DNA of 238 nt from a phage, in sequence record X58667.1; one strand, written 5' to 3'. Positions 1 to 238 of the stretch are shown in pieces. Within the stretch, counting starts at the first letter, position 1. The number at the start of each line of letters is the position of its first letter. The notes under the pieces are model-generated. The model searched no databases. It was not told the DNA's origin and saw nothing but the letters and a program-made list of their open reading frames with translations. The translations under genes and the position numbers were made by a program.

Positions 1-56
1 GGATCCGTTGACCTGCAGGTCGACCCAGATCTGGGTCGACCGGTCGACCCAGATCC
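1..56. other. Synthetic multiple-cloning-site / linker region (BamHI 1-6, GTTGAC HincII-type 7-12, PstI 13-18, SalI 19-24, BglII 27-32, SalI 35-40, AgeI 39-44, SalI 43-48, AGATCC hybrid 51-56)
   Basis: Seen directly: eight or more 6-bp restriction recognition sequences tiled almost without gaps in 56 bp, far too dense for natural DNA. The first 24 bp (GGATCCGTTGACCTGCAGGTCGAC) resemble the symmetric BamHI-SalI-PstI-SalI polylinker of M13mp7/pUC7-type vectors with one base difference (GTTGAC rather than GTCGAC); this resemblance is recalled from memory, not searched. GC content drops sharply after about position 56. Confidence 0.8.
19..40. repeat. Perfect 22-bp palindrome GTCGACCCAGATCTGGGTCGAC (SalI-BglII-SalI linker); its left arm recurs as a 14-bp direct repeat GGTCGACCCAGATC at 18-31 and 42-55
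   Basis: Seen directly: the reverse complement of 19-40 is identical to itself, and positions 18-31 and 42-55 are identical. The pattern fits duplicated synthetic linker halves rather than a natural operator or mobile-element inverted repeat. Confidence 0.85.
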
Positions 57-95
57 ACTCGTTATTCTCGGACGAGTGTTCAGTAATGAACCTCT

Positions 96-101
96 GGAGA
101 G
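96..101 (+). promoter_or_regulatory. Shine-Dalgarno-like ribosome binding site (GGAGAG) for the ATG at 106
   Basis: Seen directly: GGAG at 96-99 (GGAGAG 96-101) lies 6 nt (4 nt from the extended motif) upstream of ATG 106-108, within the usual bacterial spacing range. Confidence 0.5.
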
Positions 102-105
102 AACC

Positions 106-238
106 ATGTATATGATCGTTATCTGGGTTGGACTTCTGCTTTTAAGCCCAGATAACTGGCCTGAATATGTTAATGAGAGAATCGGTATTCCTCATGTGTG
201 GCATGTTTTCGTCTTTGCTCTTGCATTTTCGCTAGCAA
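106..238 (+). CDS. Partial CDS (5' start in window, 3' end beyond window): hypothetical small hydrophobic/membrane protein, N-terminus MYMIVIWVGLLLLSPDNWPEYVNERIGIPHVWHVFVFALAFSLA...
   Basis: Seen directly: ATG at 106 with an upstream SD-like motif, and an open frame from 106 to the window end with no stop (44 full codons). The translation has a hydrophobic stretch at residues 1-13 (MYMIVIWVGLLLL), a polar/charged loop (SPDNWPEYVNERIG), then a second hydrophobic stretch (IPHVWHVFVFALAFSLA) still running at the window edge. Codon usage is AT-biased and includes AGA. No family assignment could be made from memory. The start is ambiguous: ATG 112 and GTG 76 are in the same frame, and the frame is open back to position 1. 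Confidence 0.55.
   Translation, partial: MYMIVIWVGLLLLSPDNWPEYVNERIGIPHVWHVFVFALAFSLA

Follow-up and report, generated by a model that had tools for sequence, protein, structure and literature searches.

The DNA analysed here (hereafter, the window) is the 238-nt sequence record X58667.1, in which a synthetic polylinker is joined to a piece of phage lambda carrying the 5' part of sieB, a superinfection exclusion gene (Table 1). BLAST searches aligned window 52-238 with lambda 34500-34686 at 100% identity, both in 17 phage records and in several 'plasmid' records of 48.5 kb, and window 1-51 had no match to lambda. The open reading frame (ORF) is labelled SieB, superinfection exclusion protein B, or, by its old name, 'reading frame GIT' in the lambda records, and the lambda protein is entered as UniProt P03762 and NP_597779.1. 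In lambda, sieB is flanked by orf28/ral and N and runs against the direction of the pL early-left operon, on the other strand; its stop codon abuts that of N, sieB and N being convergent. Past the end of the window the frame runs on to lambda 35036, which gives 160 codons from the ATG at window 106 (lambda 34554) and 179 codons from ATG 34497.

Table 1 Features of the 238-nt window. Coordinates are those of the window; a point in the strand column marks features without strand.
Feature	Coordinates	Strand	Basis and remarks
Polylinker / linker concatemer, synthetic	1..51	.	Restriction-site scan, palindromes, repeat; the lambda BLAST match begins at 52
BglII/BamHI hybrid junction AGATCC	51..56	.	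Window compared with lambda '...gaaATGGATCCactc'
Lambda 34500-34686, 5' part of sieB ('git')	52..238	+	100% identical; without promoter and without first codon
Segment from N to ral of the leftward pL early transcription unit, antisense to sieB	52..238	-	Gene order
SieB codons 2-19 DPLVILGRVFSNEPLERT, predicted cytoplasmic N-terminal extension	52..105	+	Diverged alleles, PHROG 6399, open frame
GGAG Shine-Dalgarno	96..99	+	6-nt spacer before the ATG at 106-108; synonymous change to GGAA in L054-L057
ATG-TAT-ATG, internal in-frame starts (lambda 34554, 34560)	106..114	+	Both ATGs kept in L054-L057
Transmembrane segment 1 (TM1) MYMIVIWVGLLLLS	106..147	+	Hydropathy; hydrophobic at the equivalent spot in P22-type and diverged alleles
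Acidic, Trp/Pro-rich short loop PDNWPEYVNERIGIP, predicted periplasmic	148..192	+	Net charge about -1; positive-inside rule
Transmembrane segment 2 (TM2), most of HVWHVFVFALAFSLA...	193..238	+	Hydropathy; continues past the window end as ...INVH, then strongly basic

Polylinker, junction and gene identity

The polylinker contains nested perfect palindromes, and a restriction-site scan located sites for BamHI (1-6), PstI (13-18), BglII (27-32) and AgeI (39-44), a HincII-type GTTGAC (7-12) and three SalI sites (19-24, 35-40 and 43-48). It is made up of repeated SalI-type and BglII-type linker units, with the 14-nt direct repeat GGTCGACCCAGATC present twice, at 18-31 and 42-55. The GTTGAC at 7-12 differs from a SalI site by one base, and one side of an otherwise symmetric BamHI-SalI-PstI-SalI arrangement is thereby broken. 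At the boundary with lambda, base 51 (A) stands in the place of G34499, the last base of the conserved sieB ATG (34497-34499). By this comparison, AGATCC is what results when a BglII end is ligated to the lambda BamHI end at 34499. The junction sequence had no exact match in the genome contigs and viral contigs searched. At the other end, a native lambda NheI site (GCTAGC, 231-236) falls two bases before the end of the record, and the 238-base record may be delimited by restriction sites, from BamHI to NheI.

Translation of 106-237 gives the 44-residue peptide MYMIVIWVGLLLLSPDNWPEYVNERIGIPHVWHVFVFALAFSLA. These residues alone matched Pfam PF14163 (SieB) with 31.3 bits (E=1.8e-7), above the gathering threshold of 26 bits for the family, and full-length lambda SieB scored 103.5 bits. 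The profile PHROG 6399 ('SieB superinfection exclusion') was matched with E=7e-25 by the 44 residues and E=5e-113 by the full protein. Judged by these matches and by the DNA identity, the window ORF is almost certainly the N-terminal two-helix membrane region of lambda SieB, an already known gene. A reading of the sequence made without database searches (hereafter, the sequence-only reading) had called the protein unidentified; it is lambda sieB/git with 100% identity. That reading had itself named confident homology to a well-characterised protein of unrelated function as what would speak against a small membrane peptide, and a confident hit to a well-characterised protein, lambda SieB, is what was obtained.

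The window copy and lambda SieB agree in DNA over 52-238, in frame and, counting from codon 2 of the 179-aa form, in protein; the window copy differs in ending after codon 63 of that form and in having polylinker codons fused upstream. None of the PADLOC-DB 2.0 protein models matched lambda or P22 SieB at E≤0.01, the search for NCBIfam models for SieB found none, and a sequence search of the PDB with SieB returned no solved structure. Overall, the locus is a known textbook phage gene on a cloning-vector junction, with nothing new besides the comparative support, described below, for a start codon and for an Esc-like short form, and the window ORF should be struck from lists of candidate new membrane peptides.

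Several records of ~48.5 kb were 100% lambda over the query, for example MW057783.1 ('Campylobacter phage CJLB-4'), NZ_CP082339.1, NZ_CP104294.1 and NZ_CP068597.1. Plasmids filed under Salmonella enterica, Stenotrophomonas maltophilia and Paenibacillus sonchi are among the lambda-matching records of this size. These 'plasmid' and 'Campylobacter phage' records look like carry-over of lambda control DNA in assemblies and not like real replicons.

The start codon of lambda SieB

Upstream of the ATG at window 106, its frame has no stop codon as far as base 1, the whole polylinker included. The corresponding lambda frame stays open back to 34410 and contains possible starts before 34554 at 34482 (TTG), 34485, 34497 and 34524. 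The N-termini of lambda SieB vary in public databases, where four versions of 160, 179, 183 and 184 aa are found. The 184-aa form, from TTG 34482, is that of UniProt P03762 and RefSeq, the 179-aa form is that of V00638, and the 160-aa form is that of most PGAP annotations and occurs on at least 1000 contigs.

Diverged lambda-type alleles (L054-L057, 71-74% amino acid identity) were obtained from a scan of viral contigs with the peptide of window 55-237. The codon-constraint test spans the 19 codons from ATG 34497 to 34554 and amounts to effectively two independent diverged alleles. Over these upstream codons L054 differs from lambda by four nucleotides, all four of them synonymous, and L055 has six changed codons, five of which are synonymous and the other an R to K replacement. 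Across the body of the gene, 23-52% of the nucleotides differ and replacements are many. Directly upstream of ATG 34497, identity in the diverged alleles falls to 50%; an in-frame TGA lies 12 codons upstream of this ATG, with no other start between. ATG 34497 is conserved in the diverged alleles, whereas TTG 34482 is not. The PHROG 6399 profile also takes in the extension, with the Met of window 106 at profile position 24.

Because the upstream changes are almost all synonymous, similarity collapses before the ATG and the TGA is followed by no alternative start, ATG 34497 appears to be the conserved start. We are confident, from this pattern of codon conservation, that the 19 codons upstream of the window 106 Met are translated and that this Met would be internal to full-length SieB. 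The native start of full-length SieB is most likely ATG 34497, which would give a protein of 179 aa.

The main alternative is that ATG 34554 is the sole true start of SieB (160 aa), with the upstream codons a leader, no Esc in lambda, and a complete start kept in the clone. It would fit the Shine-Dalgarno ranking, where ATG 34554 came out best of the in-frame candidates (GGAG, 6 nt) and ATG 34497 had just GAG, as well as the PF14163 model, which begins at the Met of ATG 34554 (profile position 1), and the fact that the 160-aa form is the commonest annotation. We nevertheless consider it improbable, since a leader does not fit with changed codons that are synonymous in four of four cases in L054 and five of six in L055, with a loss of similarity exactly upstream of ATG 34497, or with a PHROG profile that includes the extension. 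The experimentally based annotation of P22 has a long/short design as well, and P22-type alleles also keep the extension.

Predicted membrane topology, exclusion and a possible Esc-like short form

The 44-residue peptide has hydrophobic stretches at residues 1-13 and 30-44, with 13-mer Kyte-Doolittle means of up to 2.6 and 2.1, respectively. An open frame with two separated hydrophobic segments was retained in just 14 of 20,000 mononucleotide shuffles of 106-237, far fewer than if the pattern were due to chance. Translation and hydropathy thus bear out what the sequence-only reading had described, namely an ATG with a ribosome-binding site (RBS), a 44-residue frame and two hydrophobic segments around an acidic Trp/Pro loop, and its idea of an N-terminal membrane anchor or hairpin of a phage protein was right, as seen in hydropathy and in lambda SieB. 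Its picture of a small protein that starts directly at Met1 has to be given up: the protein has 160-179 aa, the frame has no upstream stop, and TM1 of the native protein is preceded by 19 residues including two arginines.

Beyond TM2, lambda SieB has no hydrophobic segment, and a C-terminal domain of ~110 residues follows. The net charge is -2 for the N-terminal extension in lambda, about -1 for the loop and +9 for the 30 residues after TM2. From the positive-inside rule applied to the charges around TM1 and TM2, we infer an N-in, loop-out, C-in hairpin that would anchor a cytoplasmic domain of ~110 residues. By hydropathy and charge, the layout of two N-terminal hydrophobic segments, a basic stretch and a soluble C-terminal domain is present in lambda, L054 and P22; in the diverged P22-type allele L006 the first hydrophobic segment alone was detected at the threshold used. 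From this layout, the window holds just TM1, the loop and most of TM2.

Several classes of small membrane protein had been suggested from the sequence. Superinfection exclusion, which was on that list, is supported by the SieB families, whereas holin, type I toxin and bacteriocin immunity protein are dismissed by size and position. Since the gene is flanked by ral and N, outside any lysis cassette, it does not encode a holin, a type I toxin or a bacteriocin immunity protein. That the window encodes a stand-alone small membrane peptide of the holin, type I toxin, lysis or bacteriocin-immunity kind, subcloned on purpose with its RBS, has next to no probability. The two hydrophobic segments and the good RBS visible in the window agree with such a peptide, and the lambda holin likewise has a dual start and two products, a loose functional resemblance; yet the gene has 160-179 codons with a large soluble domain, is convergent with N at a locus with no lysis cassette, and matches the SieB families solely, with no PADLOC or NCBIfam model, and the edge of the clone is a natural BamHI site that takes away the promoter and the conserved start.

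Two candidate classes were considered separately. A holin would be expected beside the endolysin in the lysis cassette and to have ~60-150 aa, mostly transmembrane with a short charged tail; the gene is found in the early-left region between ral/orf28 and N, and the protein of 160-179 aa has ~110 non-hydrophobic C-terminal residues. For a type I toxin or small lysis peptide the expectation is fewer than ~60 aa and a single transmembrane segment, and 160 codons with two hydrophobic segments were found.

P22 is the phage in which sieB was defined genetically. SieB is not known to have a partner other than Esc. RexB and other membrane-anchored abortive-infection proteins are like SieB in being prophage-expressed inner-membrane proteins of the immunity region that abort other phages. 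RexB is a multi-pass membrane protein that needs RexA, and no sequence relation between RexB and SieB was detected.

When P22-like phages superinfect, the SieB system halts macromolecular synthesis of the cell midway in their lytic cycle, whereas P22 itself is spared (PMC10883804); the phenotype described for SieB in the literature is that a lysogen abortively excludes heterologous lambdoid phages (PMC10883804). The sieB gene gives rise to two in-frame polypeptides, the exclusion factor SieB and the inhibitor Esc (PMC3224144, PMC10002423, PMC12197685), and in P22 the antisense RNA sas shifts translation from SieB to Esc (PMC10002423, PMC12197685, PMC7067206). SieB-Esc is entered for lambda too in the lambda interaction map (PMC3224144), and lambda sieB is dispensable for plaque formation (PMC10695390). 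SieB is a prophage-expressed inner-membrane protein which, going by the P22 literature, cuts short lytic growth when heterologous lambdoid phages superinfect, and P22 Esc is a truncated SieB that blocks SieB and spares the phage from self-exclusion. Esc would differ from SieB solely by missing the cytoplasmic N-terminal extension.

The P22 record annotates a sieB gene of 192 codons, esc in the same frame starting at codon 25, and a promoter with a mapped RNA start. P22 SieB and Esc (NP_059604.1 and YP_063724.1) belong to the same Pfam family as the lambda protein (E ~1e-29 each), and the P22 slot matches that of lambda: ral is on one side and, on the other, convergent with sieB, is the gene for the N-type antiterminator (in P22, gene 24). 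Both proteins have a two-TM N-terminus, an extension of 19-24 residues and a Met heading TM1. Direct similarity is low (~22% identity in the global alignment; a pairwise BLASTP E of 3.5, not significant), and a tblastn search of phages with lambda SieB did not reach P22; the positional equivalence between lambda and P22 rests on Pfam and PHROG profiles, global alignments and synteny. P22-type alleles of E. coli prophages (L005, L006 and L007) also keep an extension, of 24 residues, and a Met where TM1 begins.

On the Pfam profile, Met1 of P22 Esc falls at position 3, the window 106 Met at position 1 and the window 112 ATG at position 3. MAFFT and PHROG 1301 also align the P22 esc start with the window 112 ATG, two codons after 106. 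By these alignments, the window 112 ATG takes exactly the place of the P22 esc start. The putative internal start in lambda is a conserved ATG with a Shine-Dalgarno at the esc-equivalent position, the Shine-Dalgarno being weakened in L054-L057. The chance that lambda does use this start for an inhibitor of the Esc type is, in our view, slightly above even.

The comparative evidence favours ATG 34497 for full-length SieB, and the widely annotated 160-aa form is likely an Esc-type short product. Taken further, lambda sieB may be a two-product gene (SieB from 34497 and an Esc-like protein from 34554/34560), in which case the TTG start of RefSeq and UniProt and the 160-aa form of PGAP would both be wrong for the exclusion factor, and arms that begin at BamHI 34499 would be esc-only; we see this complete reading as evenly balanced between true and false. 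If true, the allele on all BamHI-34499 arms and fragments of old vectors would be 'esc-only' and without a promoter.

In P22, sas is an antisense RNA of 105 nt, whereas the lambda transcript that runs antisense to sieB is that of pL itself. No lambda counterpart of sas was identified, promoter scans having found no promoter-like site on the minus strand.

SieB and Esc resemble the lambda holin S105 and antiholin S107, in that one frame gives two membrane proteins which differ at the N-terminus only and one of which is an antagonist of the other; both pairs are included in the lambda interaction map (PMC3224144). The S105/S107 pair differs from SieB in being unrelated in sequence, in size, in location (lysis cassette versus immunity-left region) and in effect (programmed lysis versus abortive exclusion). 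The resemblance is one of design only, not of homology, and the window ORF does not belong to that pair. By analogy, our best guess is that Esc would block SieB through mixed inactive oligomers, as S107 does with S105.

The clone, the sieB promoter segment and other copies

The BamHI site GGATCC (34499-34504) overlaps the sieB initiator (atG GAT CC), and the junction turns ATG 34497 into CCA, with 17 polylinker codons fused in frame. As BamHI cuts within ATG 34497 and the junction is downstream of the promoter, the clone has neither the initiator nor the promoter of sieB. The insert is very probably a 5' fragment of lambda sieB, promoterless and start-less, carried as a passenger at a vector junction. 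BamHI 34499 is the usual edge of the right arms of lambda replacement vectors and of the HindIII-BamHI pL-N fragment of pL expression plasmids, and either a replacement-vector arm or a pL-N fragment would account for the junction.

The RBS and ATG at 96-108 are a natural internal start and so give no evidence of purposeful subcloning. The proposal of the sequence-only reading that the fragment had been subcloned with an intact RBS for the sake of expression thus loses its ground, as the insert simply begins at a BamHI site native to lambda, with the promoter and ATG 34497 cut off. An intended polylinker-sieB fusion, with a tagged SieB made from a vector start codon further upstream, is very unlikely: frame 1 does run without a stop from base 1 across the polylinker to sieB codon 2, but 51 stop-free bases are unremarkable, a palindromic linker stack is typical of vector construction, window 1-75 has no start codon in that frame, and BamHI 34499 is a standard boundary of lambda arms and fragments. 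As a passenger, the fragment could under vector-driven transcription yield no active full-length SieB, but at most a fusion with the polylinker or a short form like Esc. Constructs that end at lambda BamHI 34499 would accordingly be unable to make full-length SieB, which bears on worries about toxicity and phage exclusion.

The P22 promoter with its RNA start (29690-29727) has an almost base-for-base counterpart in lambda at ~34431-34471, upstream of the clone boundary. The sieB promoter would thus lie ~30-65 bp upstream of ATG 34497 and the junction, outside the window. Promoter and terminator scans on both strands of the window and of lambda 34199-35499 returned nothing. As far as can be read from the DNA, the sieB promoter is weak and recognisable by P22 homology alone.

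Searches of the minus strand of the window yielded neither a gene nor an Rfam family, nor any site resembling a promoter or terminator, and its ORFs were of just 20-22 aa. The one Rfam hit in the window was a palindrome artefact within the polylinker, below threshold. A perfect 10-nt inverted repeat (GTTATCTGGG/CCCAGATAAC, 118-127/147-156, with a 19-nt loop) is located just downstream of the internal ATGs, and is probably not functional. With a fold z of -1.75, the hairpin at 118-156 is thermodynamically ordinary, and in L054 and L055 no more than the six inner pairs persist; it was dropped as a candidate feature.

An 82-bp promoter segment (lambda 34399-34480; L001 2400-2481) was found in ~980 of the 5426 complete E. 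coli genomes, and lambda-type sieB follows it in just 161 of those. The other cargo behind the segment includes P22-type sieB (L005, L006 and L007) and, at L009 and L010, a gene of 164 aa that is not a membrane protein gene, belongs to PHROG 1244 and is not related to sieB. At L008 (ATCC 25922), an ISEc52 element is located just after the segment. The 82-bp site thus acts as if it were a conserved promoter behind which the cargo can be exchanged. The diverged alleles L054-L057 have a different upstream region, and at ~835-897 they nevertheless contain the AGCGAGAAAT core and the CCCC..ACAG motif as in the lambda/P22 promoter segment, which suggests that a promoter core has been conserved in an otherwise replaced leader.

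A further lambda-type sieB is located at 456-881 of L011 (E. coli O121 RM8352), annotated as a protein of 141 aa. It has a P to L replacement in the N-terminal extension and a frameshifted C-terminus, and is likely a decaying copy.
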